Part shown: piece after piece, positions 23,761 to 55,500 of the stretch
Layout of the letters: every line of letters begins with the position of its first letter
Position numbering within the stretch: position 1 is the first letter of the stretch
Origin: Amphiscolops sp. MND2022
Taxonomy: Eukaryota
DNA length: 64,000 nucleotides
Direction of reading: 5' to 3'
Assembly (NCBI GenBank): GCA_964187785.1
Contig: OZ076409.1
Location: 39,186,001-39,250,000 of the forward strand
Program-made: the position numbers and the translations under genes
The notes under the pieces: model-generated
What the model saw: only the letters and a program-made list of their open reading frames with translations
The model's database searches: none
What the model was told of the DNA's origin: nothing

Positions 23761-23846
23761 TCTCAAGTTGATAACTCAGCAAAATCTACTTGTTCCTTCA
23801 AAAAGAGTCCACAAACGTTGTCAGTAACATCAAAAAGAATGCGTAG

Positions 23847-23863
23847 CCCACCCAGGAGCACCA
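23847..23863 (-). promoter_or_regulatory. Primer binding site, tRNA-Ile(TAT)-like
   Basis: Minus strand TGGTGCTCCTGGGTGGG begins 1 nt after the LTR end; similar to the complement of the tRNA-Ile(TAT) 3' end (...cctggagcaCCA, from recall). Confidence 0.6.
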
Positions 23864-23864
23864 C

Positions 23865-25164
23865 TGTAAGAAAATCCAATTCGGGGTCGGAGAGAGTTTT
23901 ACCTCGGATTGGAAGCTTAACAGACAAAAAGGTTGTTTTAGTGAGTTAGCCAATTCTCTTGAAGTTACTGTCAATTTCTCTCCGAATGTTGCTCTCCACG
24001 TGTGAGGGGTACTTTTCCGTCCTTTTGGGGCGCAATGCATCGCGAATTCTCTCGCCTGACTGAATTGCATAAATTATCACACAAACGGCGCTGATTTACA
24101 TGTTTTAATGTAAGTTCTTCCATACGTTCCGAGGTTACATCTAAAATGACCTTGAGGTCCATCGATGACATTGAAGTTATTTGTCCTCTTCCAAAGTTGC
24201 TACATGCCAAGTTATATCATTTTAGGGTCAATAGTCTTCGAGTTACATGATGACATCATTTGTTTACTTAAGGCGGGTTGCGTGGGTTACAAATACGATT
24301 CCGTTCTTAGTGGTAATCGACTACATTCGTTATTCCAGTTCGTTTGAGATATTACAAGCCAAGGTCAAATGTCTTTTATCGGTCGGGCCCGCGCGTCCGG
24401 CCCCGCGTGCCTTGAACAAACATTACTCCGCGCGTGGTGGATCGATCAATGTATCTTTCATGTATGTTACTCAGGGTCGCTAGGTGAACATCTTGGGCAA
24501 GTTTCATGATCTTCGGGTCATCCGTTGGCTATTTACATAACATTCGGGGTTTATTTACATAGGGTCTGTGCTCCTCCTACACGCGTCGTGGGTTTCCGAA
24601 AATATGCGCAAGCGGCTTAATATCCTATGAGCTATCAATTCCATACATTATCTGACTTATTCCGTGTTTGGTCGATGAGTTCGTAGAAGGGTCGACCTAG
24701 GTCTCTTCCGGTGCTAATAGCCCGGGGCTGGGGGTCTCGGCTCGGTTCCGTTTTTTAGGCGAGTAGCACAACATCTCAGGTATTTGTTTGCCAAATTTCA
24801 GCGGGATCGGTTCAGTAGTTCGCCGGGACGGGGGGTGGTGTTTTTTTGTGATGCCCCTCCTGTTCGCATAAGATAACAACTAAGTAAAATTCGCTCGAAG
24901 CGGTCGATTCTAACTTAGCTAATTCGAACAATTTCAATGCTGACGTCACTCACTAACTTCTTAATTCTACTTAAGAACTTTCGTTTACTAAGTAAATACC
25001 TAGTTTGCCAAATAAGCCATATCGAAGCATGCTATTGTCAGCCTGTTCAGCTGTTTTCACTATTACGACGGTCTAAAAACATGATTAACATAGTTCTGCC
25101 TAGCGTATGTACTTCGCGCAAATGCAATGGGTTTTCGTAGACGCCAAAAACTAAAATTTCCACA
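23865..25164 (-). repeat. 5' LTR (1300 bp; lacks ~0.72 kb present in the other LTR)
   Basis: At ~23995 it jumps from the sequence seen at ~17218 to the sequence seen at ~17928. Confidence 0.92.
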
Positions 25165-28453: not shown

Positions 28454-28503
28454 TCAATTTAAGGAAGCTTCCCTGTTCAATAGGTGTTTACCGACATCAC
28501 GAA
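28454..28503 (-). CDS. inx: Innexin A terminal coding exon, beyond the satellite array
   Basis: ttatttaaag|TTCGTGAT... completes V-RDVGKHLLNREASLN* in phase 1. A minus-strand AATAAA lies downstream at 28180-28185. Confidence 0.7.
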
Positions 28504-31500
28504 CTTTAAATAAATGAAAGGTTAAAATTTTTCCCTTACAAAACCAATAACAAATCAATAATTCATACATACCGACTTCCGTTACCTTTTCCTTTGAAAT
28601 TGAAATAATTTCATAAAATAATGCACTTCAATTTTTTCCACAAAGTATAATGGAAAGATTTTCAAATTTTTCCCTTACAAAACCAATAACAAATCAAAAA
28701 TTCTTACATACCGACTTCCGTTACCTTTTCCTTTGAAATTGAAATAATTTCTTAAAATAATGCACTTCAATTTTTTCCACAAAGTATAATGAAAAGATTT
28801 TCAAAATTTTCCCTTACAAAACCAATAACAAATCAGTAATTCATACATACCGACTTCCGTTACCTTTTTCTTTGAAATTGAAATAATTTCTTAAAATAAT
28901 GCACTTCAATTTTTCCCACAAAGTATAATGAAAAGATTTTCAAAATTTTCCCTTACAAAACCAATAACAAATCAGTAATTCATACATACCGACTTCCGTT
29001 ACCTTTTCCTTTGAAATTGAAATAATTTCAAAAAATATTGCACTTCAATTTCTTCCACAAAGTATAATGAAAAGATTTTCAAAGTTTTCCCTTACAAAAC
29101 CAATAACAAATCAATAATTCATACATACCGACTTCCGTTACCTTTTCCTTTGAAATTGAAATAATTTCTTAAAATATTGCACTTCAATTTTTTCCACAAA
29201 GTATAATGAAAAGATTTTCAAAATTTTCCCTTACAAAACCAATAAGAAATCAGTAATTCATACATACCGACTTCCGTTACCTTTTTCTTTGAAATTGAAA
29301 TAATTTCTTAAAATAATGCACTTCAATTTTTTCCACAAAGTATAATGAAAAGATTTTCAAAATTTTCCCTTACAAAACCAATAACAAATCAGTAATTCAT
29401 ACATACCGACTTCCGTTACCTTTTCCTTTGAAATTGAACTAATTTCATAAAATAATGCACTTCAATTTTTCCACAAAGTATAATGAAAAGATTTTCAATT
29501 TTTTCCCTTACAGAACCAATAACAAATCAAAAATTCTTACATACCGACTACCGTTACCTTTTCCTTTGAAATTGAAATAATTTCATAAAATAATGCACTT
29601 CACTTTTTTCCACAAAGTATAATGAAAAGATTTTCAAATTTTTTCCTTACAAAACCAATACCAAATCAATAATTCATACATCCCGACTTCCGTTACCTTT
29701 TTCTTTGAAATTGAAATAATTTCTTAAAATAATGCACTTCACTTTTTTCCACAAAGTATAATGAAAAGATTTTCAAAATTTTCCCTTACAAAACCAATAA
29801 CAAATCAGTAATTCATACATACCGACTTCCGTTACCTTTTCCTTTGAAATTGAAATAATTTCATAAAATAATGGACTTCACTTTTTTCCACAAAGTATAA
29901 TGAAAAGATTTTCAAATTTTTCCCTTACAAAACCAATAACAAATCAATAATTCATACATACCGACTTCCGTTACCTTTTCCTTTGAAATTGAAATAATTT
30001 CTTAAAATAATGCACTTCAATTTTTTCCACAAAGTATAATGAAAAGATTTTCAAAATTTTCCCTTACAAAACCAATAACAAATCAAAAATTCTTACATAC
30101 CGACTAACGTTACCTTTTCCTTTGAAATTGAAATAATTTCATAAAATAATGCACTTCACTTTTTTCCACAGAGTATAATGAAAAGATTTTCAAATTTTTC
30201 CCTTACAAAACCAATACCAAATCAATAATTCATACATACCGACTTCCGTTACCTTTTTCTTTGAAATTGAAATAATTTCTTAAAATAATGCACTTCAATT
30301 TTTTCCACAAAGTATAATGAAAAGATTTTCAAAATTTTCCCTTACAAAACCAATAACAAATCAAAAATTCTTACATACCGACTACCGTTACCTTTTCCTT
30401 TGAAATTGAAATAATTTCATAAAATAATGCACTTCACTTTTTTCCACAAAGTATAATGAAAAGATTTTCAAATTTTTCCCTTACAAAACCAATACCAAAT
30501 CAATAATTCATACATACCGACTTCCGTTACCTTTTTCTTTGAAATTGAAATAATTTCTTAAAATAATGCACTTCAATTTTTTCCACAAAGTATAATGAAA
30601 AGATTTTCAAAATTTTCCCTTACAAAACCAATAACAAATCAGTAATTCATACATACCGACTTCCGTTACCTTTTTCTTTGAAATTGAAATAATTTCTTAA
30701 AATAATGCACTTCAATTTTTTCCACAAAGTATAATGAAAAGATTTTCAAAATTTTCCCTTACAAAACCAATAACAAATCAAAAATTCTTACATACCGACT
30801 ACCGTTACCTTTTCCTTTGAAATTGAAATAATTTCATAAAATAATGCACTTCACTTTTTTCCACAAAGTATAATGAAAAGATTTTCAAATTTTTCCCTTA
30901 CAAAACCAATACCAAATCAATAATTCATACATACCGACTTCCGTTACCTTTTTCTTTGAAATTGAAATAATTTCTTAAAATAATGCACTTCAATTTTTTC
31001 CACAAAGTATAATGAAAAGATTTTCAAAATTTTCCCTTACAAAACCAATAACAAATCAGTAATTCATACATACCGACTTCCGTTACCTTTTCCTTTGAAA
31101 TTGAAATAATTTCAAAAAATAATGCACTTCAATTTCTTCCACAAAGTATAATGAAAAGATTTTCAAATTTTTCCCTTACAAAACCAATAACAAATCAATA
31201 ATTCATACATACCGACTTCCGTTACCTTTTCCTTTGAAATTGAAATAATTTCTTAAAATAATGCACTTCAATTTTTTCCACAAAGTATAATGAAAAGATT
31301 TTCAAAATTTTCCCTTACAAAACCAATAAGAAATCAGTAATTCATACATACCGACTTCCGTTACCTTTTTCTTTGAAATTGAAATAATTTCTTAAAATAA
31401 TGCACTTCAATTTTTTCCACAAAGTATAATGAAAAGATTTTCAAAATTTTCCCTTACAAAACCAATAAGAAATCAGTAATTCATACATACCGACTTCCGT

Positions 31501-34500
31501 TACCTTTTTCTTTGAGATTGAAATAATTTCTTAAAATAATGCACTTCAATTTTTTCCACAAAGTATAATGAAAAGATTTTCAAAATTTTCCCTTTTCAAA
31601 ACCAATAACAAATCAGTAATTCATACATACCGACTTCCGTTACCTTTTCCTTTGAAATTGAAATAATTTCATAAAATAATGCACTTCAATTTTTTCCACA
31701 AAGTATAATGAAAAGATTTTCAAATTTTTCCCTTACAGAACCAATAACAAATCAAAAATTCTTACATACCGACTACCGTTACCTTTTCCTTTGAAATTGG
31801 AATAAATTCATAAAATAATGCACTTCAATTTTTTCCACAAAGTATAATGAAAAGATTTTCAAATTTTTCCCTTACAAAACCAATAACAAATCAATAATTC
31901 ATACATACCGACTTCCGTTACCTTTTTCTTTCAAATTGAAGCAATTTCATAAAATAAAACCAATAACAAATCAATAATTCATACATACCGACTACCGTTA
32001 CCTTTTCCTTTGAAATTGGAATAAATTCATAAAATAATGCACTTCAATTTTTTCCACAAAGTATAATGAAAAGATTTTCAAATTTTTCCCTTACAAAACC
32101 AATAACAAATCAATAATTCATACATACCGACTTCCGTTATCTTTTCCTTTGAAATTGAAATAATTTCATAAAACAAAACCAAAAACAAATCAATAATTCA
32201 TACATACCGACTTCCGCGACCTTTTCCTTTGAAATTGGAATAATTTCAAAAAACAATGCACTTCAAGTTTTTCCAAAAAGTATAATAAAAAGATTTTCAA
32301 ATTTTCACCTCACAAAACCAATTACAAATCAATATTTCATACATACCGACTTCCGTTACCTTTTCCTTTGAAATTGAAATAATTTCATAAAATATTGCAC
32401 TTAAATTTTTTGCACAAAGTGTAATGAAAAGATTTTCAAATTTTTCCCTTACAAAACCAATAAGAAATCAATAATTCATACATACCGACTTCCGTTACCT
32501 TTTCCTTCGAAACTGAAATAATTTCATAAAATAATGCACTTCAGTTTTTTCCACAAAGTATAATGAAAAGATTTTCAAATTTTTTCCTTAGAAAACCAAT
32601 AACAAATCAATAATTCATACATACCGACTTCCGTTACCTTTTCCTTTGAAATTGAAATAATTTCATAAAATAAAACCAATGACAAATCAATAATTCATAC
32701 ATACCGACTTTCGTTACCTTTTCCTTCGAAATTGAAATAATTTCATAAAATATTGCACTTCAATTTTTCCACAAAGTATATTGAAAAGGTTTTCAAATTT
32801 TTCCCATACAAAGCCAATAACAAATCAATAATTCATACAAACCGACTTCCGTTACCTTTTCCTTTGAAATTGAAATAATTTCATAAAATAAAACCAATAA
32901 CAAATCAATAATTCATACATACCGACTTCCGTTACCTTTTCCTTCGAAATTGAAATAATTTCATAAAATAATGCACTTCAGTTTTTTCCACAAAGTATAA
33001 TGAAAAGATTTTCAAATTTTTCCCTTAGAAAACCAATATCAAATCAATAATTCATACATACCGACTTCCGTTACCTTTTCCTTTGAACTTGAAATAATTT
33101 CATAGAATAAAACCAATAACAAATCAATAAATCATACATACCGTCTTCCGTTACCTTTTCCTTTGAAATTGAAATAGTTTCATAAAGTATTGCACTTCAA
33201 TTTTTTACACAAAGTATAATGAAAAGATTTTCAAATTTTTTCCTTACAAAACCAATAACAAATCAATAATTCATACAAACCGACTTCCGTTACCTTTTCC
33301 TTTGAAATTGAAATAATTTCATAAAATTAAACCAATAACAAATCAATAATTCATAAATACATACATACCGACTTCCGTTACCTTTTCTTTCAAAATTGAA
33401 ATAATTTCATAAAATAATGCACTTCAATTTTTTCCACAAAGTATAATGAAAAGATTTTCAAATTTTTCCTTTACAAAACCAATAACAAATCAAAAATTCT
33501 TACATACCGACTACCGTTACCTTTTCCTTTGAAATTGAAATAATTTCATAAAATAATGCACTTCAATTTTTTCCACAAAGTATAATGAAAAGATTTTCAA
33601 ATTTTTCCCTTACAAAACCAATACCAAATCAATAATTCATACATACCGACTTCCATTACCTTTTCCTTTGGAATTGAAATAATTCCATAAAATAAAACCA
33701 ATAACAAATCAATAATTCATACATACCGACTTCCGTTACCTTTTCCTTTGAAATTGAAGCAATTTCATAAAATAAAACCAATAACAAATCATTAATTCAT
33801 ACATACCGACTACCGTTACCTTTTCCTTTGAAATTTAAATAAATTCATAAAATAATGCACTTCAATTTTTTCCACAAAGTATAATGAAAAGAATTTCAAA
33901 TTTTTCCCTTACAAAACCAATAACAAATCATTAATTCATACATACCGACTTCCGTTACCTTTTCCTTTGAAATTGAAATAATTTCATAAAACAAAACCAA
34001 TAACAAATCAATAATTCATACATACCGACTTCCGCGACCTTTTTCTTTGAAATTGGAATAATTTCTTAAAACAATGCACTTCAAGTTTTTCCACAAAGTA
34101 TAATAAAAAGATTTTCAAATTTTCACCTCACAAAACCAATAACAAATCAATCTTTCATACATACCGACTTCCGTTACCTTTTCCTTTGAAATTGAAATAA
34201 TTTCATAAAATAATGCACCTAAATTTTTTGCACAAAGTATAATAAAAAGATTTTCAAATTTTTCCCTTAGAAAACCAATAACAAATCAATAATTCATACA
34301 TACCGACTTCCGTTACCTTTTCCTTTGAAATTGAAATACTTTCATAAAATAAAACCAATAACAAATCAATAATTCATACATACCGACTTCCGTTACCTTT
34401 TCCTTCGAAATTGAAATAATTTCGTAAAATAATGCACTTCGATTTTTTCCACAAAGTATAATGAAAAGATTTTCAAATTTTTCCCATACAAAGCCAATAA

Positions 34501-37500
34501 CAAATCAATATTTCATACAAACCGACTTCCGTTACCTTTTCCTTTGAAATTGAAATAATTTCATAAAACAAAACCAATAACAAATCAATAATTCATACAT
34601 ACCGACTTCCGTTACCTTTTCCTTTGAAATTGAAATAAATTCATAAAATAAAACCAATAACAAATCAATATTTCATACATACCGACTTCCGTTACCTTTT
34701 CCTTTGGAATTGAAATAATTTCATATAATAAAACCAATAACAAATCAATAATTCATACATACCGACTTCCGTTACCTTTTCCTTTGAAATTGAAATAATT
34801 TCATGAAATAAAACCAATAACAAATCAATATTTCATACATACCGACTTCCGTTACCTTTTCCTTTGAAATTGAAATAATTTCATGAAATAAAACCAATAA
34901 CAAATCAATAATTCATACATACCGACTTCCGTTACCTTTTCCTTTGAAATTGAAATAATTTCATGAAATAAAACCAATAACAAATCAATAATTCATACAT
35001 ACCGACTTCCGCGACCTTTTTCTTTGAAATTGGAATAATTTCATAAAACAATGCACTTCAATTTTTTCCACAAAGTATAATGAAAAGATTTTCAAATTTT
35101 TCCCATACAAAGCCAATAACAAATCAATATTTCATACAAACCGACTTCCGTTACCTTTTCCTTTGAAATTGAAATATTTTCATAAAATAAAACCAATAAC
35201 AAATCAATAATTCATACATACCGACTTCCGTTACCTTTTCCTTTGAAATTGAAATAAATTCATAAAATAAAACCAATAACAAATCAATAATTCATACATA
35301 CCGACTTCCGTTACCTTTTCCTTTGGAATTGAAATAATTTCATATAATAAAACCAATAACAAATCAATAATTCATACATACCGACTACCGTTACCTTTTC
35401 CTTTGAAATTTAAATAAATTCATAAAATAATGCACATCAATTTTTTCCACAAAGTATAATGAAAAGAATTTCAAATTTTTCCCTTACAAAACCAATAACA
35501 AATCAATAATTCATACATACCGACTTCCGTTACCTTTTCCTTTGAAATTGAAATAATTTCATAAAACAAAACCAATAACAAATCAATAATTCATACATAC
35601 CGACTTCCGCGACCTTTTTCTTTGAAATTGGAATAATTTCATAAAACAATGCACTTCAAGTTTTTCCACAAAGTATAATAAAAAGATTTTCAAATTTTCA
35701 CCTCACAAAACCAATAACAAATCAATCTTTCATACATACCGACTTCCGTTACCTTTTCCTTTGAAATTGAAATAATTTCATGAAATAAAACCAATAACAA
35801 ATCAATAATTCATTCATACCGACTTCCGCGACCTTTTTCCTTGAAATTGGAATAATTTCATAAAACAATGCACTTCAATTTTTTCCACAAAGTATAATGA
35901 AAAGATTTTCAAATTTTTCCCATACAAAGCTAATAACAAATCAATATTTCATACAAACCGACTTCCGTTACCTTTTCCTTTGAAATTGAAATATTTTCAT
36001 AAAATAAAACCAATACCAAATCAATAATTCATACATACCGACTTCCATTACCTTTTCCTTTGGAATTGAAGTAATTCCATAAAATAAAACCAATAACAAA
36101 TCAATAATTCGTACATACCGACTTCCGTTACCTTTTCCTTTGAAATTGAAGCAATTTCATAAAATAAAACCAATAACAAATCATTAATTCATACATACCG
36201 ACTACCGTTACCTTTTCCTTTGAAATTTAAATAAATTCATAAAATAATGCACTTCAATTTTTTCCACAAAGTATAATGAAAAGATTTTCAAATTTTCACC
36301 TCACAAAACCAAGAACAAATCAATCTTTCATACATACCGACTTCCGTTACCTTTTCCTTTGAAATTGAAATAATTTCATGAAATAAAACCAATAACAAAT
36401 CAATAATTCATTCATACCGACTTCCGCGACCTTTTTCTTTGAAATTGGAATAATTTCATAAAACAATGCACTTCAATTTTTTCCACAAAGTATAATGAAA
36501 AGATTTTCAAATTTTTCCCATACAAAGCTAATAACAAATCAATATTTCATACAAACCGACTTCCGTTACCTTTTCCTTTGAAATTGAAATATTTTCATAA
36601 AATAAAACCAATACCAAATCAATAATTCATACATACCGACTTCCATTACCTTTTCCTTTGGAATTGAAATAATTCCATAAAATAAAACCAATAACAAATC
36701 AATAATTCGTACATACCGACTTCCGTTACCTTTTCCTTTGAAATTGAAGCAATTTCATAAAATAAAACCAATAACAAATCATTAATTCATACATACCGAC
36801 TACCGTTACCTTTTCCTTTGAAATTTAAATAAATTCATAAAATAATGCACTTCAATTTTTTCCACAAAGTATAATGAAAAGAATTTCAAATTTTTCCCTT
36901 ACAAAACCAATAACAAATCAATAATTCATACATACCGACTTCCGTTACCTTTTCCTTTGAAATTGAAATAATTTCATAAAACAAAACCAATAACAAATCA
37001 ATAATTCATACATACCGACTTCCGCGACCTTTTTCTTTGAAATTGGAATAATTTCATAAAACAATGCACTTCAAGTTTTTCCACAAAGTATAATAAAAAG
37101 ATTTTCAAATTTTCACCTCACAAAACCAATAACAAATCAATCTTTCATACATACCGACTTCCGTTACCTTTTCCTTTGAAATTGAAATAGTTTCACAAAA
37201 TAATGCACTTAAATTTTTTGCACAAAGTATAATAAAAAGATTTTCAAATTTTTCCCTTAGAAAACCAATAACAAATCAATAATTCATACATACCGACTTC
37301 CGTTACCTTTTCCTTTGAAATTGAAATACTTTCATAAAATAAAACCAATAACAAATCAATAATTCATACATACCGACTTCCGTTACCTTTTCCTTCGAAA
37401 TTGAAATAATTTCATAAAATAATGCACTTCAATTTTTTCCACAAAGTATAATGAAAAGTTTTTCAAATTTTTCCCGTACAAAGCCAATAACAAATCAATA

Positions 37501-40500
37501 TTTCATACAAACCGACTTCCGTTACCTTTTCCTTTGAAATTGAAATAATTTCATAAAACAAAACCAATAACAAATCAATATTTCATACATACCGACTTCC
37601 GTTACCTTTTCCTTTGAAATTGAAATAAATTCATAAAATAAAACCAATAACAAATCAATAATTCATACGTACCGACTTCTGTTACCTTTTCCTTTGGAAT
37701 TGAAATAATTTCATATAATAAAACCAATAACAAATCAATAATTCATACATACCGACTTCCGTTACCTTTTCCTTTGAAATGAAATAATTTCATGAAATAA
37801 AACCAATAACAAATCAATAATTCATACATACCGACTTCCGTTACTTTTTCCTTTGAAATTGAAATAATTTCATGAAATAAAACCAATAACAAATCAATAA
37901 TTCATACATACCGACTTCCGTTACCTTTTCCTTTGAAATTGAAATAATTATATGAAATAAAACCAATAACAAATCAATAATTCATACATACCGACTTCCG
38001 CGACCTTTTTCTTTGAAATTGGAATAATTTCATAAAACAATGCACTTCAATTTTTTCCACAAAGTATTATGAAAAGATTTTCAAATTTTTCCCATACAAA
38101 GCCAATAACAAATCAATATTTCATACAAACCGACTTCCGTTACCTTTTCCTTTGAAATTGGAATAATTTCATAAAACAATGCACTTCAATTTTTTCCACA
38201 AAGTATTATGAAAAGATTTTCAAATTTTTCCCATACAAAGCCAATAACAAATCAATATTTCATACAAACCGACTTCCGTTACCTTTTCCTTTGAAATTGA
38301 AATATTTTCATAAAATAAAACCAATAACAAATCAATAATTCATACATACCGACTTCCGTTACCTTTTCCTTTGAAATTGAAATAAATTCATAAAATAAAA
38401 CCAATAACAAATCAATAATTCATACATACCGACTTCCGTTACCTTTTCCTTTGGAATTGAAATAATTTCATATAATAAAACCAATAACAAATCAATAATT
38501 CATACATACCGACTTCCGTTACCTTTTCCTTTGAAATTGAAATAGTTTCATGAAATAAAACCAATAACAAATCAATAATTCATACATACCGACTTCCGCG
38601 ACCTTTTTCTTTGAAATTGGAATAATTTCATAAAACAATGCACTTCAAATTTTTCCACAAAGTATAATGAAAAGATTTTCAAATTTTTCCCATACAAAGC
38701 CAATAACAAATCAATATTTCATACAAACCGACTTCCGTTACCTTTTCCTTTGAAATTGAAATAATTTCATAAAATAAAACCAATAACAAATCAATAATTC
38801 ATACATACCGACTTCCGTTACCTTTTCCTTTGAAATTGAAATAAATTCATAAAATAAAACCAATAACAAATCAATAATTCATACATACCGACTTCCGTTA
38901 CCTTTTCCTTTGGAATTGAAATAATTTCATATAATAAAACCAATAACAAATCAATAATTCATACATACCGACTTCCGTTACCTTTTCCTTTGAAATTGAA
39001 ATAGTTTCATGAAATAAAACCAATAACAAATCAATAATTCATACATACCGACTTCCGCGACCTTTTTCTTTGAAATTGGAATAATTTCATAAAACAATGC
39101 ACTTCAAATTTTTCCACAAAGTATAATGAAAAGATTTTCAAATTTTTCCCATACAAAGCCAATAACAAATCAATATTTCATACAAACCGACTTCCGTTAC
39201 CTTTTCCTTTGAAATTGAAATAATTTCATAAAATAAAACCAATAACAAATCAATAATTCATACATACCGACTTCCGTTACCTTTTCCTTTGAAATTGAAA
39301 TAATTTCATAAATTAATGCACTTAAATTTTTTGCACAAAGTATAATAAAAAGATTTTCAAATTTTTCCCTTAGAAAACCAATAACAAATCAATAATTCAT
39401 ACATACCGACTTCCGTTACCTTTTCCTTTGAAATTGAAATACTTTCATAAAATAAAACCAATAACAAATCAATAATTCATACATACCGACTTCCGTTACC
39501 TTTTCCTTCGAAATTGAAATAATTTCATAAAATAATGCACTTCAATTTTTTCCACAAAGTATAATGAAAAGATTTTCAAATTTTTCCCATACAAAGCCAA
39601 TAACAAATCAATATTTCATACAAACCGACTTCCGTTACCTTTTCCTTTGAAATTGAAATAATTTCATAAAATAAAACCAATAACAAATCAATAATTCATA
39701 CATACCGACTTCCGTTACCTTTTCCTTTGAAATTGAAATAAATTCATAAATTAAAACCAATAACAAATCAATAATTCATACATACCGACTTCCGTTACCT
39801 TTTCCTTTGGAATTGAAATAATTTCATATAATAAAACCAATAACAAATCAATAATTCATACATACCGACTTCCGTTACCTTTTCCTTTGAAATTGAAATA
39901 ATTTCATGAAATAAAACCAATAACAAATCAATATTTCATACATACCGACTTCCGTTACCTTTTCCTTTGAAATTGAAATAATTTCATGAAATAAAACCAA
40001 TAAAAAATCAAAAATTCATACATACCGACTTCCGCTACTTTTTCCTTTGAAATTGAAATAGTTTCATAGAATATTGCACTTCAATTTTTTACACAAAGTA
40101 TAATGAAAAGATTTTCAAATTTTTCCCTTACAAAACCAATAACAAATCAATAATTCATACATACCGACTTGCGTTACCCTTTCCTTTGAAATTGAAATAA
40201 TTTCTTATAATAATGCACTTCAATTTTTTCCACAAAGTATAATGAAAAGATTTTCAAGTTTTTCCCTTACAACCAATAACAAATCAGTAATTCATACATA
40301 CCGACTTCCGTTACCTTTTCCTTTGAAATTGAAATAATTTCATAAAATAATGCTTTTCAATTTTTTCCACAAAGTATAATGAAAAGATTTTCAAATTTTT
40401 CCCTTACAACCAATAACAAATCAGTAATTCATACATACCGACTTCCGTTACCTTTTCCTTTGAAATTGAAATAATTTCATAAAATAATGCACATCAATTT

Positions 40501-43500: not shown

Positions 43501-46500
43501 TCAATTTTTTCCACAAAGTATGATGAAAAAATTTTCAAATTTTTCCCTTACAACCAATAACAAATCAGTAATTCATACATACCGACTTCCGTTACCTTTT
43601 CCTTTGAAATTGAAATAATTTCATAACAAAATGCACTTCAATTTTTTCCACAAAGTATAATGAAAAGATTTTCAAATTTTTCCCTTACAAAACCAATAAC
43701 AAATCAGTAATTCATACATACCGACTTCCGTTACCTTTTCCTTTGAAATTGAAATAATTTCATAAAATAATGCACTTCAATTTTTTCCACAAAGTATAAT
43801 GAAAAGATTTTCAAATTTTTCCCTTACAAAACCAATAACAAATCGAAAATTCTTACATACCGACTTCCGTTACCTTTTCCTTTGAAATTGAAATAATTTC
43901 ATAAAATAATGCACTTCAATTTTTTCCACAAAATATAATGAAAAGATTTTCAAATTTTTCCCCTTCAAAACCAATACCAAATCAATATTTCATACATACC
44001 GACTTCCGTTACCTTTTCCTTTGAAATTGAAATAATTCCATCAAATAAAACCAATAACAAATCAAAAATTCATACATACCGACTTCCGTTACATTTTCCT
44101 TTGAAATTTATTTAATTTCATAAAATAAAACCAATAACAAATCAATAATTCATACATACCGACTTCCATTACCTTTTCCTTTGAAATTGAAATAGTTTCA
44201 TAAAGTATTGCACTTCAATTTTTTACACAAAGTATAATGAAAAGATTTTCAAATTTTTCCCTTACAAAACCAATAACAAATCAATAATTCATACATACCG
44301 ACTTCCGTTAGCTTTTCCTTTGAAATTGAAATAATTTCATAAAATAAAACCAATAACAAATCAATAATTCATAAATACATACATACCGACTTCCGTTACC
44401 TTTTCTTTCGAAATTGAAATAATTCCATAAAATAATGCACTTCATTTTTTTCCACAAAACATAATGAAAAGATTTTCAAATTTTTCCCTTACAAAACCAA
44501 TAACAAATCAATAATTCATACATACCGACTTCCGTTACCGTTTCCTTTGAAATTGAAATAATTTCATAAAATAATGCACTTCAATTTTTTCCACAAAGTA
44601 TTATGAAAAGATTTTCAATTTTTTCCCTTACAAAACCAATAACAAATCAATAATTCATACATACCGACTTCCGTTACCTTTTCCTTTGAAATTGAAATAG
44701 TTTCATAAAATATTGCGCTTCAATTTTTTCCACAAAGTATAATGAAAAGATTTTCAAATTTTTCCCTTACAAAACCAATAACAAATCAATAATTCATACA
44801 TACCGACTTCCGTTACCTTTTCCTTTGAAATTGAAATAATTTCATAAAATAAAACCAATAACAAATCAATAATTCATAAATACATACATACCGACTTCCG
44901 TTACCTTTTCTTTCGAAATTGAAATAATTCCATAAAATAATGCACTTCATTTTTTTCCACAAAGTATAATGAAAAGATTTTCAATTTTTTCCCTTACAAA
45001 ACCAATAACAAATCAATAATTCATACATACCGACTTCCGTTACCTTTTCCTTTGAAATTGAAATAATTTCATAAAATAATGCACTTCAATTTTTTCCACA
45101 AAGTATAATGAAAAGATTTTCAATTTTTTCCCTTACAAAACCAATAACAAATCAATAATTCATACATACCGACTTCCGTTACCTTTTTCTTTGAAATTGA
45201 AATAAGTTCATAAAATAATGCACTTCAATTTTTTCCACAAAGTAAAATGAAAAAAATTTTTAATTTTTCCCCTTACAACCAATAACAAATCAGTATTTCA
45301 TACATACCGACTTCCGTTACCTTTTCCTTTGAAATTGAAATAATTTCATAAAATAAAACCAATAACAAATCAATAATTCATACATACCGATTTCCGTTAC
45401 CTTTTCCTTTGAAATTGAAACAATTTCATGAAATAAAACCAATAACAAATCAATAATTCATACATACCGACTTCCGCTACTTTTTCCTTTGAAATTGAAA
45501 TAGTTTCATAAAATATTGCACTTCAATTTTTTACACAAAGTATAATGAAAAGATTTTCAAATTTTTCCCTTACAAAACCAATAACAAAACAATAATTCAT
45601 ACATACCGACTTCCGTTTCCTTTTCCTTTGAAATTGAAATAATTTCTTAAAATAATGCACTTCAATTTTTTCTACGAAGTATTATGAAAAGATTTTCAAA
45701 TTTTTCCCTTACAAAACCAATAACAAATCAGTAATTCATACATACCGACTTCCGTTACCTTTTCCTTTGAAATTGAAATAATTTCATAAAATAATGCACT
45801 TCAATTTTTTCCACAAAGTATAATGAAAAGATTTTCAATTTTTTCCCTTACAAAACCAATAACAAATCAATAATTCATACATACCGACTTCCGTTACCTT
45901 TTTCTTTGAAATTGAAATAAGTTCATAAAATAATGCACTTCAATTTTTTCCACAAAGTAAAATGAAAAAAATTTTTAATTTTTCCCCTTACAACCAATAA
46001 CAAATCAGTATTTCATACATACCGACTTCCGTTACCTTTTCCTTTGAAATTGAAATAATTTCATAAAATAAAACCAATAACAAATCAATAATTCATACAT
46101 ACCGATTTCCGTTACCTTTTCCTTTGAAATTGAAACAATTTCATGAAATAAAACCAATAACAAATCAATAATTCATACATACCGACTTCCGCTACTTTTT
46201 CCTTTGAAATTGAAATAGTTTCATAAAATATTGCACTTCAATTTTTTACACAAAGTATAATGAAAAGATTTTCAAATTTTTCCCTTACAAAACCAATAAC
46301 AAAACAATAATTCATACATACCGACTTCCGTTTCCTTTTCCTTTGAAATTGAAATAATTTCTTAAAATAATGCACTTCAATTTTTTCTACGAAGTATTAT
46401 GAAAAGATTTTCAAATTTTTCCCTTACAAAACCAATAACAAATCAGTAATTCATACATACCGACTTCCGTTACCTTTTCCTTTGAAATTGAAATAATTTC

Positions 46501-49500
46501 ATAAAATAATGCACTTCAATTTTTTCCACAAAGTATAATGAAAAAATTTTCAAATTTTTCCCTTACAACCAATAACAAATCAGTATTTCATACATACCGA
46601 CTTCCGTTACCTTTTCCTTTGAAATTGAAATAATTTCATAAAATATTGCACTTCAATTTTTTCCACAAAGTATAATGAAAAGATTTTCAAATTTTTCCCT
46701 TACAAAACCAATACCAAATCAATATTTCATACATACCGACTTCCGTTACCTTTTCCTTCGAAATTGAAATAATTCCATAAAATAAAACCAATAACAAATC
46801 AATACTTCATACATACCGACTTTCGTTACCTTTTCCTTTGACATTTAAATAATTTCATAAATTAAAAACCAATAACAAATCAATAATTCATACATACCGA
46901 CTTCCGTTACCTTTTCCTTTGAAATTGAAATAGTTTCATAAAATATTGCGCTTCAATTTTTTCCACAAAGTATAATGAAAAGATTTTCAAATTTTTCCCT
47001 TACAAAACCAATAACAAATCAGTAATTCATACATACCGACTTCCGTTACCTTTTCCTTTGAAATTGAAATAATTTCATAAAATAATGCATTTCAATTTTT
47101 TCCACAAAGTTTAATGAAAAAATTTTCAAATTTTTCCTTTACATCCAATAACAAATCAGTAATTCATACATACCGACTTCCGTTACCTTTTCTTTTGAAA
47201 TTGAAATAGTTTCATAAAATAATGCACTTCACTTTTTTCCCACAAAGTATAATGAAAAGATTTTCAAATTTTTCCCTTACAAAACCAATAACAAATCGAA
47301 AAGTCTTACATACCGACTTCCGTTACCTTTTCCTTTGAAATTGAAATAATTTCATAAAATAATGCACTTCAATTTTTTCCACAAAGTATAATAAAAAGAT
47401 TTTCAAATTTTTCCCTTACAAAACCAATACCAAATCAATATTTCATACATACCGACTTCCGTTACCTTTTCCTTTGAAATTGAAATAATTCCATAAAGTA
47501 AAACCAATAACAAATCAATAATTCATACATCTGACTTCCGTTACCTTTTCCTTTGAAATTTAATTAATTTCATAAAATAAAACCAATAACAAATCAATAA
47601 TTCATACATACCGACTTCCATTACCTTTTTCTTTGAAATTGAAATAGTTTCATAAAATATTGCACTTCAATTTTTTACACAAAGTATAATCAAACGATTT
47701 TCAAATTTTTCCCTCACAAAACCAATAACAAATCAATAATTCATACATACCGACTTCCGTTACCTTTTCCTTTGAAATTGAAATAATTTAATAAAATAAA
47801 ACCAATAACATATCAATAATTCATAAATACATACATACCGACTTCCGTTACCTTTTCTTTCGAAATTGAAATAATTCCATAAAATAATGCACTTCAATTT
47901 TTTCCACAAAGTATAATGAAAAGATTTTCAAATTTTTCCCTTACAAAACCAATAACAAATCAATAATTCATACATACCGACTTCCGTTACCTTTTCCTTT
48001 GAAATTGAAATAATTTCATAAAATAATGCACTTCAATTTTTCCCACGAAGTATAATGAAAAGATTTTCAAATTTTTCCCTTACAGAACCAATAGCAAATC
48101 AATAATTCATACATACCGACTTCCGTTACCTTTTCCTTTGAAATTGAAATAATTTCATAAAATAATGCACTTCAATTTTTTCCACAAAGTATAATGAAAA
48201 GATTTTCAATTTTTTCCCTTACAAAACCAATAACAAATCAATAATTCATACATACCGACTTCCGTTACCTTTTCCTTTGAAAATGAAATAATTTCATAAA
48301 ATAATGCACTTCATTTTTTCCCACAAAGTATAATGAAAAGATTTTCAAATTTTTCCCTTACAGAACCAATAACAAATCGAAAATTCTTACATACCGACTT
48401 CCGTTACTTTTTCCTTTGAAATTGAAATAATGTCATACAACAAAACTAATAACAAATCATTAATTCAAACATACCGACTTCCGTTACCTTTTCCTTTGAA
48501 ATTGAAATAATTTCATAAAATAATGCACTTCATTATTTTCCACAAAATATAATGAAAAGATTTTCAAATTTTTCCCTTACAAAACCAATACCAAATCAAT
48601 AATTCATACATACCGACTTCCGTTACCTTTTCCGTTGAAATTGAAAGAATTCCATGAAATAAAACCAATAACAAATCAATAATTCATACATACCGACTTC
48701 CGTTACCTTCTCCTTTGAAATTGAAATAATTTCATAAAATTATGCACTTCAATTTTTTCCACAAAGTATAATGAAAAGATTTTCAAATATTTCCCTTACA
48801 AAACCAATACCAAATCAATAATTCATACATACCGACTTCCGTTACCTTTTCCTTTGAAATTGAAAGAATTTCATAAAAGAAAACCAATAACGAATCAATA
48901 ATTCATACATACCGACTGCCGTTACCTTTTCCTTTGAAATTGAAATAATTTCATAAAATAAAACCAATAACAAATCAATATATCATACATACCGACTTCC
49001 GTTACCTTTTCCTTTGAAATTGAAATAATTTCATGAAATGAATCCAATAACAAATCAATAATTCATACATACCGACTTCCGTTACCTTTTCCTCTGAAAT
49101 TGAAATAATTTCATAAAATAAAACCAATAACAAATCAATAATTCATACATACCGACTTCTGATAATTTTTCCTTTGAAATTGAAATAGTTTCATAAAAAT
49201 AATGCACTTCCGTTTTTTACACAAAGTATAATGAAAAGATTTTCAAATATTTCCCTTACAAAACCAATAACAAACCGATTATTCATACATACCGACTTCC
49301 GTTACCTTTTCTTTTGAAATTGAAATAATTTAATAAAAGAAAACCAATAACGAATCAATAAATCATACATACCGACTTCCGTTACCTTTTCCTTTGAAAT
49401 TGAAATAATTTCATAAAATAAAACCAATACCAAATCAATATATCATACATACCGACTTCCGTTACCTTTTCCTTTGAAATTGAAATAATTTCATAAAATG

Positions 49501-52500
49501 AATCCAATAACAAATCAATAATTCATACATACCGACTTCCGTTACCTTTTCCTCTGAAATTGAAATAATTTCATAAAATAAAACCAAAAACAAATCAATA
49601 ATTCATACATACCGACTTCCGATACTTTTTCCTTTGAAATTGAAAAAATTTCATAAAATGAAACCAATAACGAATCAATAATTCATACATACCGACTCTT
49701 CCGTTACCTTTTCCTTTGAAATTGAAATAATTTCATAAAATAATGCACTTCAATTTTCTCCACAAAGTATAATGAAAAGATTTTCAAATTTTTCCCTTAT
49801 AAAAACCAATAACAAAACAATAATCCATACATACCAACTTCCGTTACCTTTTCCTTTGAAATTGAAATAATGTCATAAAACAAAACCAATAACAAATCAT
49901 TAATTCAAACATACCGACTTCCGTTACCTTTTCCTTTGAAATTGAAATAATTTCATAAAATAATGCACTTCATTTTTTTCCACAAAATATAATGAAAAGA
50001 TTTTCAAATTTTTCCCTTACAAAACCAATACCAAATCAATAATTCATACATACCGACTTCCGTTACCTTTTCCGTTGAAATTGAAAGAATTCCATGAAAT
50101 AAAACCAATAACAAATCAATAATTCATACATACCGACTTCCGTTACCTTCTCCTTTGAAATTGAAATAATTTCATAAAATAATGCACTTCATTTTTTTCC
50201 ACAAAGTATAATGAAAAGATTTTCAAATATTTCCCTTACAAAACCAATAACAAATCGATAATTCATTCATACCGACTTCCGTTACCTTTTCCTTTGAAAT
50301 TGAAATAATTTCATAAAAGAAAACCAATAACGAATCAATAATTCATACATACCGACTGCCGTTACCTTTTCCTTTGAAATTGAAATAATTTCATAAAATA
50401 AAACCAATAACAAATCAATATATCATACATACCGACTTCCGTTACCTTTTCCTTTGAAATTGAAATAATTTCATGAAATGAATCCAATAACAAATCAATA
50501 ATTCATACATACCGACTTCCGTTACCTTTTCCTCTGAAATTGAAATAATTTCATAAAATAAAACCAATAACAAATCAATAATTCATACATACCGACTTCC
50601 GATACTTTTTCCTTTGAAATTGAAATAGTTTCATAAAAATAATGCACTTCCGTTTTTTACACAAAGTATAATGAAAAGATTTTCAAATATTTCCCTTACA
50701 AAACCAATAACAAATCGATAATTCATACATACCGACTTCCGTTACCTTTTCTTTTGAAATTGAATTAATTTAATAAAAGAAAACCAATAACGAATCAATA
50801 AATCATACATACCGACTTCCGTTACCTTTTCCTTTGAAATTGAAATAATTTCATAAAATAAAACCAATACCAAATCAATATATCATACATACCGACTTCC
50901 GTTACCTTTTCCTTTGAAATTGAAATAATTTCATAAAATGAATCCAATAACAAATCAATAATTCATACATACCGACTTCCGTTACCTTTTCCTCTGAAAT
51001 TGAAATAATTTCATAAAATAAAACCAAAAACAAATCAATAATTCATACATACCGACTTCCGATACTTTTTCCTTTGAAATTGAAAAAATTTCATAAAATG
51101 AAACCAATAACGAATCAATAATTCATACATACCGACTCTTCGGTTACCTTTTCCTTTGAAATTGAAATAATTTCATAAAATAATGCACTTCAATTTTCTC
51201 CACAAAGTATAATGAAAAAATTTTCAAATTTTTCCCTTATAAAAACCAATAACAAAACAATAATCCATACATACCAACTTCCGTTACCTTTTCCTTTGAA
51301 ATTGAAATAATGTCATAAAACAAAACCAATAACAAATCATTAATTCAAACATACCGACTTCCGTTACCTTTTCCTTTGAAATTGAAATAATTTCATGAAA
51401 CAATGCATTTCAATTTTTTCCACAAAGTATAATGAAAAGATTTTCCAATTTTTCCCTCACAAAACCAATAACAAAATAATAATTCATACATACCGACTTC
51501 CGTTACCTTTTCCTTTGAAATTGAAATAATTTCATAAAATAATGCACTTCAATTTTTTCTACAAAGTATAATGAAAAGATTTTCAAATTTTTCTCTTACA
51601 AAACCAATAATAAATCAATAATTCATACATACCGACTTCCGTTACCGTTTCCTTTGAAATTGAAAGAATTTCATAAAATAAAACCAATAACAAATCAATA
51701 ATTCATACATACCGACTTCCGTTACCTTTTCCTTTGAAATTGAAATAATTTCATAAAATAATGCACTTCAATTTTTTCCACAAAGTATAATGAAAAAATT
51801 TTCAAATATTTCCCTTACAAAACCAAAAAACAAATCGATAATCATACACACCGACTTCCGTTACTTTTTCCTTTGAAATTGAAATAATTTCATAAAATAA
51901 AACCAATAACAAATCAGTATATCATACATACCGACTTCCGTTACCTTTTCCTTTGAAATTGAAATAATTTCATGAAAGAAAACCAATAACGAATCAATAA
52001 TTCATACATACCGACTGCCGTTACCTTTTCCTTTGAAATTGAAATAATTTCATAAAATAAAACCAATAACAAATCAATATATCATACATACCGACTTCCG
52101 TTACCTTTTCCTTTGAAATTGAAATAATTTCATGAAATGAATCCAATAACAAATCAATAATTCATACATACCGACTTCCGTTACCTTTTCCTCTGAAATT
52201 GAAATAATTTCGTAAAATAAAACCAATAACAAATCAATAATTCATACATACCGACTTCCGATACTTTTTCCTTTGAAATTGAAATAGTTTCATAAAAATA
52301 ATGCACTTCTGTTTTTTACACAAAGTATAATGAAAAGATTTTCAAATATTTCCCTTACAAAACCAATAACAAATCGATAATTCATACATACCGACTTCCG
52401 TTACCTTTTTTTTGAAATTGAAATAATTTCATAAAAGAAAACCAATAACGAATCAATAAATCATACATACCGACTTCCGTTACCTTTTCCTTTGAAATTG

Positions 52501-55500
52501 AAATAATTTCATAAAATAAAACCAATACCAAATCAATATATCATACATACCGACTTCCGTTACCTTTTCCTTTGAAATTGAAATAATTTCATAAAATGAA
52601 TCCAATAACAAATCAATAATTCATACATACCGACTTCCGTTACCTTTTCCTCTGAAATTGAAATAATTTCATAAAATAAAACCAAAAACAAATCAATATT
52701 TCATACATACCGACTTCCGATACTTTTTCCTTTGAAATTGAAAAAATTTCATAAAATGAAACCAATAACGAATCAATAATTCATACATACCGACTCTTCC
52801 GTTACCTTTTCCTTTGAAATTGAAATAATTTCATAAAATAATGCACTTCAATTTTCTCCACAAAGTATAATGAAGAGATTTTCAAATTTTTCCCTTATAA
52901 AAACCAATAACAAAACAATAATCCATACATGCCAACTTCCGTTACCTTTTCCTTTGAAATTGAAATAATGTCATAAAACAAAACCAATAACAAATCATTA
53001 ATTCAAACATACCGACTTCCGTTACCTTTTCCTTTGAAATTGAAATAATTTCATGAAACAATGCACTTCAATTTTTTCCACAAAGTATAATGAAAAGATT
53101 TTCAAATTTTTCCCTCACAAAACCAATAACAAAATAATAATTCATACATACCGACTTCCGTTACCTTTTCCTTTGAAATTGAAATAATTTCATAAAATAA
53201 TGCACATCAATTTTTTCTACAAAGTATAATGAAAAGATTTTCAAATTTTTCTCTTACAAAACCAATAATAAATCAATAATTCATACATACCGACTTCCGT
53301 TACCGTTTCCTTTGAAATTGAAATAATTTCATAAAATAAAACCAATAACAAATCAATAATTCATACATACCGACTTTCGATACTTTTTCCTTTGAAATTG
53401 AAATAGTTTCATAAAAATAATGCACTTCAGTTTTTTACACAAAGTATAATGAAAAATTTTTCAAATTTTTCCCTTACAAAACCAATAACAAATCAATAAT
53501 TCATACATACCGACTTCCGTTAACTGTTCCTTTGAAATTGAAATAGTTTCATAAAATAAAACCAATAACAAATCAATAATTCATACATACCGACTTCCGT
53601 TACCTTTTCCTTTGAAATTGAAATAATTTCATAAAACATTGCACTTCAAGTTTTTCCACAAAGTATAATGAAAAGAATTTCAAATTTTTCCCTTACAAAA
53701 CCAATAACAAATCAATAATTCATACATGCCGACTTCCGTTACCTTTTCCTTTGAAATTGTAATAATTTCATAAAATAAAGCACTTCAATTTTTCCACAAA
53801 GTATAATGAAAAGATTTTCAATATTTTCCCTTACAAAACCATTAACAAATCATTAATTCATACATACCGACTTCCGTTACTTTTTCCTTTGAAATTGAAA
53901 TAATTTCATAAAATATTGCACTTCAATTTTTTCCACAAAGTATAATGAAAAGATTTTCAAATTTTTCCCTTACAAAACCAATAACAAATCAAAAATTCAT
54001 ACATACCGACTTCCGTTACCTTTTCCTTTGAAATTGAAATAATTTCATAAATTAAAACCAATAACAAATAATAATTCATACATACCAATTTCCGTTACCT
54101 TTTCCTTTGAAATTGAACTAATTTCATAAAATGATGCACTTCAATTTTTTCCACAAAGTATAATGAAAAGATTTTCAATTTTTCCCTTACAAAACCAATA
54201 ACAAATCAATAATTCATACATACCGACTTCCGTTACCTTTTCCTTTGAAATTGAAATATTTTCATAAAATAATGCACATCAATTTTTTCCACAAAGTAGA
54301 ATGAAAAAATTTTCAAATTTTTCCCTTACAACCAATAACAAATCAGTAATTCATACATACCGACTTCCGTTACCTTTTCCTTTGAAATTGAAATAATTTC
54401 ATAAAATAATGCACTTCAATTTTTTCCACAAACTATAATGAAAAGATTTTCAAGTTTGTCCCTTACAAAACCAATAACAAATCATTAATTCATACATACC
54501 GACTTCCGTTACCACAAGCGTGTTATGCGATTCGAGGAGAAGGGCTACAAGGAACCTTCCATCGCACTTCAAGTAGTTGCTCACAAATGACGTCACTTCT
54601 TGGCGACTTGCGTTAGTTAGAAATTTACCAGCTTCAACGTTTTTGTTCTCTTCGGCTGCCTCTACCAATTGACCAATAAGAGTGAGGCCGCGTGACCAGA
54701 AAATACAACGCATGATCCAAACACAGAAGCTCAGAGCATTCAAACTTGCTAGAAGGAACAACCAAACCCAGCTGAACAAGAAGAATTTTTCGTAGATGTC
54801 TAGTACTGTGACGTCACATTGAAACGTGTATTGGATGATGTTTCCTGAAATTCATAAACATTTTCTTTTCGCTGAGTACCTTCGTTTTCGTAATGAACTG
54901 TATGTAAACAGAACACATGAATGCATTCAGTTGACAAGGGGGAGCGGCTCAAAAGGCGAGAGACTTATTAACTCATATATGTTATCTTTCATATGACAAT
55001 ACCAAAAAAAAGTAAATTTGTGTCAGTTTGGTGAAAAAATATATTGGAACTACGTTGAGTTTACTCAGAGCGACTTCTTCAACCGAACTTCGAAAAAATT
55101 GAAGGGAATCCTTTGGACGCGGTTTTGATGAGTTGAATCACGATCAGAGAGCAACAAGAAAATGCAAAAACGCTGAAAGAGTCTTTCATGTTCTTGAATA
55201 AACAAGGTAGTTTAAAAAATTGATTGAGTAAAAGAATCATAATATTTGCACGTACCAACTTGTTCCACAGGCATGTCGCACAGCACATTTCTTTGAAACA
55301 ATTGTGGTTGGTTTGGCTGTCCGAAAAACTTGCGCAATGTTTGTGAGTTTTGAAGAACAAGTTCAAGACCAAATGTTAAAGGGTTGGACGTTATGATTCC
55401 TCCTAGGGAAAACAGCGCAACAGTAGATACTCCAATGTAGAGCCACTTCATTTCCAAGTATGTTATCACCAGAAACACACGGCAGCTCCATCGGCAACAG

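Follow-up and report, generated by a model that had tools for sequence, protein, structure and literature searches.

The last intron of an innexin gene of Amphiscolops sp. contains a tandem array of 237 units, in which the end of the preceding exon and its 5′ splice site are reiterated. This array is probably a single-locus satellite of the boundary between exon 5 and the last intron, which would have started from a local duplication, grown by unequal exchange without selection, and be spliced out whole between the donor at 54499 and the acceptor predicted at 27726. Positions are those of the window, the whole stretch of 64,000 nt that was analysed, and all the features described here lie on the minus strand.

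Structure of the innexin gene and of the array

The host gene was recognized as an innexin from the Pfam domain PF00876 (E = 1e-12 for exon 5) and from its multi-exon open frame. Exon 1 (contig positions 39265122-39264993, outside the window) is separated by an intron of 19,386 nt from exon 2 (59427..59606), which is followed by exon 3 (55975..56159), exon 4 (55256..55508) and the 345-nt exon 5 (54500..54844). The authentic donor of the last intron, GTATGT at 54494..54499, is in phase 1. Its codon and phase were identical in all six paralogues examined for this donor, and the cluster contains at least six innexin paralogues.

The array spans 28525..54513, with its units placed head to tail. 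It starts at 54513 inside exon 5, where the 14 terminal nt of the exon (54500-54513) and the adjoining donor at 54499 open unit 1. The initial annotation had described a monomer carrying these exonic nucleotides, the donor and the beginning of the intron, as well as a right array edge running into the exon; we found the same anatomy, 14 exonic nt and then the 5′ splice site, across the 237 units, and the edge lies where it had been placed. The 237 unit starts comprise 119 long units (137–140 nt, typically ∼139 nt), 117 short units (79–88 nt, typically ∼80 nt) and one final partial unit of 62 nt (28525..28586), which matches the start of the typical monomer and beyond which the homology ends. 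The array can thus be written as (A+B)x236+A, where A is 62 nt and B is 77 nt. Part B of the long monomer, overlooked in the initial annotation, matches neither flank. A search for its source, covering 228 kb of flanking and neighbouring sequence, yielded a best local score of 32, which lies inside the range of 15 shuffles (27–41). We also considered the flank as an older, decayed unit, and discarded this possibility as too weakly supported (P = 0.018 under a lenient, self-chosen gap setting).

The GT was retained in 233 of 237 units and the full GTATGT in 213 of 237, counting the authentic donor. Units departed from the column majority by 3.5%, 185 of the 237 were distinct, and the two unit types were arranged in higher-order blocks. 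As the longest exact repeat within the array is only 813 nt and so many units are distinct, an assembly artefact is unlikely.

The array is confined to a single locus

We assessed the locus-specificity of the monomer by three genome-wide pattern searches, comparing the match counts with those of the window. All the matches in 1.07 Gb (99/99, 99/99 and 226/226) were inside the array, as would be expected of the locus-specific monomer that the initial annotation had proposed to verify, and none of the three probes had a copy at an unrelated locus of the kind that a dispersed satellite or a transposon-borne repeat leaves. Reversed control patterns gave no match genome-wide and no copy of the junction motif was present outside the array within the window; the match between the array and the exon is not due to chance. 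Metagenome scans for a second copy of the locus gave no exact match, and none of 156 stretches was confirmed. Comparable arrays were also absent from 19 neighbouring 10-kb stretches close to the paralogues. Because the donor position is common to six paralogues, the repeat appears to have grown from a real junction. This, together with the single locus, supports the earlier proposal that the array arose in place from the gene's own splice junction.

The terminal exon and the size of the intron

The initial annotation had let the left edge of the array pass into a normal intron end and a terminal exon at 28454..28503, preceded by AAG. We ranked all the 2462 AG-candidates with a leave-one-out profile of the paralogues, and the best one was a different exon, which starts at 27725 after a CAG. 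It also ranked 1 of 2462 under a profile of outside innexins, built from 99 of 122 proteins after 23 with unaligned ends were dropped; four read-through gene calls and the self match had been removed beforehand. Independence of the leave-one-out ranks is incomplete, because the paralogous terminal exons had been chosen partly with mutual help, and the outside profile served as the independent check; it ranked the paralogues' own terminal exons 1–5. The lead under the paralogue profile was narrow (9.5 bits vs 9.2 bits for the runner-up, a candidate whose GAG acceptor is purine-rich and whose frame has 10 codons), and the paralogues have longer tails (56–104 aa) than the 33 aa predicted here. 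The earlier candidate ranked 337 and 44 of 2462 under the paralogue and outside profiles, respectively. Its peptide lacks innexin-tail likeness and has a Gly in a column that is occupied by W, Y or F in 97–98 of the 99 outside innexins (80 + 10 + 8). Judged from these alignments, the last exon of the initial annotation is probably wrong; the segment is probably intronic, or a minor alternative end at most.

The predicted exon 6 (27625..27725; coding part with stop) has a T-rich CAG acceptor in front and occurs once in the genome. The first AATAAA 3′ of it, at 27507..27512, is a candidate poly(A) signal. With this exon, each of the six exons has an open frame and canonical splice sites, and the predicted frame is 397 aa long, with no internal stop, so the claim of an intact reading frame on either side of the array was borne out. 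Among longer database entries, none of 631 candidates passed as a full-length annotated protein, which is a weak negative. The part of the predicted intron outside the array includes a diverged dispersed-repeat fragment (28207..28361), similar at 74–88% identity to at least 41 other places in the genome, with 40 of 166 candidates scored.

The predicted last intron thus spans 27726..54499 (26,774 nt). The distances given previously, 69 nt from 28572 to 28504 and 25,996 nt from 54499 to 28504, are arithmetically correct, but position 28504 was not confirmed as an acceptor. As exon 6 starts 778 nt beyond the exon annotated earlier, collapsing the intron to the last donor copy leaves 847 nt, and we estimate an intron of ∼847–986 nt before amplification and a growth of ∼27–32-fold, i.e. 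from ∼0.85–1 kb to ∼26.8 kb, instead of the several hundred-fold growth from a 69-nt intron. The expectation of ∼70 nt for related introns was likewise not supported, the paralogous last introns measuring 723–5346 nt. Within this gene no intron is shorter than 411 nt and intron 1 is 19.4 kb, and an intron of ∼27 kb is not unusual for this gene family in this genome.

Splice signals and variation inside the array

If the gene is transcribed, its pre-mRNA would carry hundreds of copies of the donor. The monomer does not contain any CAG or TAG acceptor (0 YAG), whereas YAG was absent from only 3 of 250 control intron windows; the decoy donors are therefore likely to be silent. The AG ahead of the inner GT of the monomer is an AAG following purines, and the exact cassette of AAG, 19 nt and donor was present in 90 units. 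As the best terminal-exon acceptor of one paralogue is an AAG, that of the monomer may be a weak acceptor. In 6 of 236 units, a CAG variant creates a predicted pseudo-exon of 21 nt that is in frame and stop-free (52631..52651, 52172..52192, 50973..50993, 50513..50533, 49533..49553 and 49073..49093), and one more unit has a 45-nt cassette. With 2 parsimony steps at the column, the six go back to roughly a single mutation that was copied in blocks. If translation runs on past the first donor, it ends at a stop 16 codons later, which would probably expose mis-spliced RNA to degradation. The sense strand of the array has one AATAAA in 26 kb.

The mutation patterns of the array look mostly neutral. 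YAG-creating changes were seen in 17 of 37 cases against 17.3 expected, and poly(A)-signal-creating changes in 2 of 4 against 2.2 expected; the variation gave no sign that new acceptors or poly(A) signals had been selected against. A tree-free count of core-donor changes (4 of 12 seen, 6.1 expected) showed no significant deficit. The nine donor columns were about half as variable as the others (15 parsimony steps), with P = 0.025–0.034 for all units, 0.03 for short units and 0.08 for long units, values that are uncorrected for other tests and come from a tree of recombining repeats. The zone of low variation is wider than the U1-pairing bases and reaches about +10. The lower variation of the donor columns, which would not be expected if the array were purely neutral, weakly hints at constraint.

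Comparison with known systems

Reiteration of a 5′ splice site is known from several human minisatellites. Those described in the parts of Borensztajn et al. (2006, PMC1557585) used here include F7 IVS7 (37 bp, 5–9 copies), IFI6/6-16 (25 pseudo-sites), CBS IVS13 (15–20 repeats), LMNB2 (100 bp, 10–15 copies) and PDGF intron 4 (81 bp, 16–18 copies). According to the same account, splicing is normal despite the repeats in F7, LMNB2 and PDGF, the most upstream donor being used in F7, whereas IFI6 (6-16) and CBS use two pseudo-sites beside the authentic one. The innexin array resembles these examples in that its first unit spans the exon–intron boundary and identical donors follow the authentic one in the intron; its unit size overlaps those of LMNB2 and PDGF. 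It differs, as far as the examples set out there go, in having 237 units over 26 kb against ∼25 units at most, two unit types in higher-order blocks, and an invertebrate host. The lancelet ‘mirages’ of Adh3, troponin C, the globins BflGb6 and BflGb9, and PGBD5 likewise duplicate exon–intron boundaries in tandem in an invertebrate; in the portions of PMC3087553 and PMC3902484 consulted here, their units are 10–160 bp, their origin is ascribed to unequal crossing-over and splicing is reportedly undisturbed. The same portions give 3–6 units in the globin example (237 here), describe many mirages as copying acceptors and report length polymorphism for them. The innexin array shares with these two groups a first unit that spans a real boundary, head-to-tail donor copies in the intron, and a single local origin. 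Arrays of this kind are already known as boundary-reiterating minisatellites and mirages, and it is the scale that is new: we found no larger donor-repeat array in the literature searched, which was mostly that outside subscription journals, without supplements.

A recursive-splicing ratchet point consists of a pyrimidine tract and a YAG directly before a GT, and in a tandem array of micro-exons, such as SmPoMuc of Schistosoma, each unit has an acceptor, an in-frame exon and a donor. Both have a likeness to the innexin array, in each unit of which an AG precedes the donor by a few bases. Unlike in ratchet points, this AG is an AAG after purines, with no pyrimidine tract and YAG; unlike in micro-exon arrays, the common cassette of 19 nt would shift the frame, and only 6 of 236 units offer an in-frame 21-nt cassette behind a YAG. 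The gigantic introns of the Drosophila Y-linked fertility genes contain simple satellites, and we know of no case there in which the repeats are copies of a splice junction. In the extracts of PMC11207136 used here, these introns are similarly enlarged by repeats and possibly burden co-transcriptional splicing, but they reach the megabase scale, whereas the 26.8 kb predicted here is near the size of the gene's own intron 1.

Origin of the array and alternative explanations

We infer that a piece of 62–139 nt spanning the boundary was duplicated, either as 139 nt that later lost the last B or as 62 nt flanking a 77-nt spacer. The unit would then have been multiplied by unequal crossing-over or slippage, and an internal deletion of 59 nt would have created the short unit, which subsequently spread in mixed blocks. 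The downstream donors would stay silent, the first donor alone pairing across the exon with a CAG acceptor; human F7, with its use of the most upstream donor, offers a precedent by analogy. As splicing would use the first donor copy only, the array is likely to be harmless. Complete silence of the other donors is not assured, because IFI6 and CBS use two pseudo-sites.

Alternatively, the earlier gene model, with an intron ending in AAG at 28504, the terminal exon at 28454-28503 and an ancestral intron of 69 nt, could be correct. This exon is in frame, has a T-rich stretch before its AG, directly adjoins the last partial unit and is followed by AATAAA/ATTAAA from 28185 on; one paralogue also has an AAG acceptor, and rank 44 of 2462 is within the top 2% of the outside profile. 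We regard this model as quite improbable, since the exon scores negative in both profiles and lacks the L-aromatic pair seen in the terminal exons of all six paralogues and in nearly all 99 outside tails, while a 69-nt intron is far below those of the paralogues and of this gene. Still less credible is an assembly expansion of a far shorter repeat, or the insertion of a foreign satellite or transposon with a chance match to the exon. The array length is that of the assembly and the 77 nt of part B match neither flank; however, the distinct units, the 813-nt limit of exact repeats, the ordered blocks and the absence of the three probes elsewhere in 1.07 Gb all argue against it. The 14 nt also code for conserved residues of innexins and end at a donor that the paralogues share, and a gene call from ENA contigs, which may not be independent of the assembly, has the same exon and the first 16 read-through codons.

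The remaining alternatives concern function. It is unlikely, in our judgement, that the decoy donors are functional and selected, either through U1 binding along the AT-rich 26-kb intron or as in-frame micro-exons of 7 residues, whether as a guard against premature cleavage, an aid to stepwise removal or a source of a longer cytoplasmic tail. Variation within the monomer is lowest in the donor columns (P = 0.025–0.08), the donor is kept in both unit types, poly(A) signals are scarce and six CAG variants yield stop-free cassettes. Yet these P values are marginal and uncorrected, their tree is one of recombining repeats, the quiet zone runs to about +10 and counting without a tree gives no significant deficit; nor are new acceptors or poly(A) signals purged, and the six cassettes represent about one mutation. 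In the sequence scanned, no array of this kind is present in five cluster paralogues or in the 19.4-kb intron 1 either. A co-opted satellite, in which ∼200 U1 sites were selected to shield or stage the removal of the intron and CAG micro-exons let turnover tune the innexin tail, is slightly less plausible again. The opposite possibility, that competing donors divert splicing and harm the gene, leaving a paralogue that is poorly expressed or heading for loss while its neighbours buffer it, seems to us just as unlikely as functional donors. The six or more paralogues, the 212 extra GTATGT donors and the early read-through stop would fit it, but the six exons have open frames and canonical splice sites, and the known precedents splice normally. 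We therefore retain an unselected satellite of local origin as the preferred explanation.

Implications

The array does not show a new mechanism. Its copy number is ∼10-fold above the published donor-repeat examples compared, and a kb-scale satellite with higher-order structure can, on this evidence, arise from single-copy genic DNA. The array also suggests a survival filter, by which the growth of a boundary repeat to a large size may require a unit without any usable acceptor. With 212 identical donors downstream of the authentic site, the array constitutes a natural stress test, outside mammals, of the rule that the most upstream donor wins.

Array anatomy and its single locus

The tandem array occupies window positions 28525–54513 on the minus strand, starting at 54513 inside exon 5 of the innexin gene and ending at 28525. 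Cutting at the junction motif gave 237 unit starts: 119 long units (137–140 nt), 117 short units (79–88 nt), each a long unit without about 59 internal nt, and one final partial unit of 62 nt. Every unit is headed by the last 14 nt of the exon and the donor; GT was kept in 233 of the 237 units and GTATGT in 213. The mean divergence of units from the column majority was 3.5%, roughly even across the array length, and 185 of 237 units were distinct. The longest exact repeat was 813 nt, with block spacings of, for example, 417, 715, 1440 and 1658 nt. Judged from the assembled sequence, such diversity and block spacing are what a genuine array in turnover should show, and a mis-assembly should not. 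GC skew was about −0.5 all along the array, and AATAAA occurred 118 times in 28525–54513 on the plus (antisense) strand, about once per short unit, versus once on the sense strand.

In the 1.07-Gb assembly, the window is G000:C1:39186001–39250000. We searched this assembly with three probes, one of 27 nt across the junction (exact), one of 31 nt from mid-monomer (2 mismatches) and one of 33 nt from the monomer tail (3 mismatches), obtaining 99, 99 and 226 matches, respectively, and none with the reversed control patterns. As the window alone yielded the same counts (99/99, 99/99 and 226/226), no copy of any monomer part covered by these three patterns lies elsewhere in the assembly. The monomer is thus locus-specific, a point for which the initial annotation had proposed a genome-wide comparison.

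Origin from the innexin exon–intron junction

Exon 5 (54844–54500, minus strand) matched Pfam Innexin with an E-value of 1e-12, and two exons upstream of it gave weak matches. The host gene is part of a tandem cluster on the minus strand, in which we count at least six innexins. The full gene model comprises six exons, the first of them beyond the window, and encodes 397 aa without an internal stop; introns 1–5 are 19,386, 3267, 466, 411 and 26,774 nt, the last being predicted. The cluster (G000:C1:39.13–39.45 Mb) consists of diverged genes, with exon-5 identities of 42–48% to the host gene; across the whole genome, Pfam yielded 82 innexin matches. Among ENA gene calls, P0001 (2 contigs, the longest 182,941 nt) is the host exon read through into unit 1, whereas P0002 and P0003 each represent part of exon 5 from related innexins of the cluster type.

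Six paralogues, five of them in the cluster and one at C1:32 Mb, share a phase-1 donor at this codon. On this comparison, the donor at 54499 is therefore ancestral, and the 14 nt belong to genuine coding sequence. Two further innexins have no intron at that codon. One cluster paralogue has its exon-5 equivalent in two pieces about 8 kb apart (stretches L017 and L020, G000:C1:39378085–39378273 and 39369767–39369952), while it is continuous in the others; the split is either an insertion or a new intron.

The array reads (A+B)×236+A, where A (62 nt) comprises the exon end and intron start and B is 77 nt. Part B had no match above shuffles in either flank or in 228 kb of neighbours. The array would have begun either with a 139-nt duplication, the last B being lost later, or with a 62-nt duplication enclosing a spacer; an outgroup would be needed to choose between them. 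The unit would then have been multiplied by unequal exchange, also proposed in a report on lancelet mirages (PMC3087553). The proposal that the array grew from the gene's own exon–intron junction is supported by the single locus, the donor at the paralogues' codon and the true coding nature of the 14 nt.

Terminal exon and intron size

Scanning all AGs downstream of each paralogous donor, we obtained last introns of 723, 768, 1576, 2495, 5346 and 1211 nt; all paralogous terminal exons start V/A-x-E/D/Q-L-F/Y, with tails of 56–104 aa. For the paralogue at G000:C1:39134502 (last intron in stretch L029), the top-scoring terminal exon is preceded by a long T tract and AAG, not CAG or TAG, a possible non-canonical acceptor.

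For the host gene, we took every AG with 9 or more codons after it across about 64 kb, and scored these 2462 candidates with a paralogue-based profile and an independent one from 99 outside innexins. An exon at 27725–27625 (exon 6), after a T-rich CAG, ranked first under both. It is single-copy in the genome, and AATAAA follows at 27512. Against it, the paralogue profile placed it only slightly ahead of the runner-up, and the tail has a mere 33 aa. The 54500→27725 junction is a predicted one. The terminal exon of the initial annotation (28454–28503, after AAG) ranked 337 and 44, respectively, has Gly at a column where 98 of the 99 outside proteins carry W, Y or F, and is probably wrong. It contains a short stretch that resembles a donor and matches the monomer junction, 12 nt past the AAG (28492–28503); the flank may represent a decayed unit of greater age (P 0.018 under a lenient alignment).

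With the array collapsed, the last intron would be 847 nt, or 986 nt with one full unit, within the paralogue range. Amplification would have enlarged it about 27–32-fold, and the several hundred-fold growth first claimed is probably wrong.

Other elements in the window

A Ty3/gypsy-like LTR retrotransposon lies within 1–10000 (minus strand), in several frames broken by stops or shifts, with what we take to be gag-like (9593–7215), protease/RT-like (6279–4633), RNase H-like (4438–3392) and integrase-like (3435–2551) parts; a close relative lies in stretches L023–L024. Two long similar stretches (17044–18414 and 23801–24480), about 6 kb apart around broken ORFs at 21100–23750, look like a decayed LTR element. 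Two minus-strand orphan ORFs, of 228 aa in innexin intron 2 (56368–57051, with a 48-bp duplication) and 160 aa in intron 1 (63202–63681), had no Pfam match over the cut-off and are probably transposon remnants.

Splicing and selection

CAG and TAG (YAG) are both absent from the monomer. YAG density was 1.85 per kb in the array versus 27.6 per kb in 11 control introns, where 3 of 250 windows were YAG-free. In exon definition, a donor is paired across the exon with the upstream acceptor. Since the monomer has no YAG, the downstream donors would have no canonical acceptor ahead of them with which to define an exon, and the first donor would be paired with exon 5's CAG. Splicing thus likely survives despite the array. 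For human F7, selection of the functional donor lying furthest upstream is reported (PMC1557585). Read-through beyond the first donor meets a stop after 16 codons, about 90 nt ahead of the next donor, so that NMD would probably act on RNA of this kind.

Silence of the array donors carries caveats: AAG is the best acceptor in one paralogue, an exact AAG–19 nt–donor cassette occurs in 90 units, and a CAG variant creates a stop-free 21-nt cassette in six units, which probably descend from one mutation. A TAG variant at 43009–43053 (minus strand) gives another stop-free cassette, of 45 nt, ending at a donor copy.

Newly arisen YAGs and poly(A) signals were not purged: of 37 possible YAGs, 17 were seen (17.3 expected), and of 4 possible poly(A) signals, 2 were seen (2.2 expected). 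Core-donor changes numbered 4 of 12 versus 6.1 expected, and by tree-based counts the nine donor columns were about half as variable as the others, with marginal, uncorrected P values from recombining repeats (0.025 and 0.034 for all units, 0.031 for short and 0.078 for long ones). We take the array to be largely neutral, leaving a small chance that its donors are constrained.

Relation to known boundary repeats

Donor-reiterating minisatellites of 4–25 repeats are described in F7, 6-16, CBS, LMNB2 and PDGF, where the first donor only, or the first three, are used (PMC1557585), and the lancelet mirages (PMC3087553, PMC3902484) are their counterpart in an invertebrate. Our literature search, mostly of titles, showed no larger donor array. 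All defining features of such a minisatellite or mirage that can be read from sequence are present here. At most, this one founding sequence, examined post hoc, suggests a survival filter, large growth being open only to boundary repeats whose unit has no usable acceptor. By its sequence, the array is a real, clean and unusually large case of a known kind.
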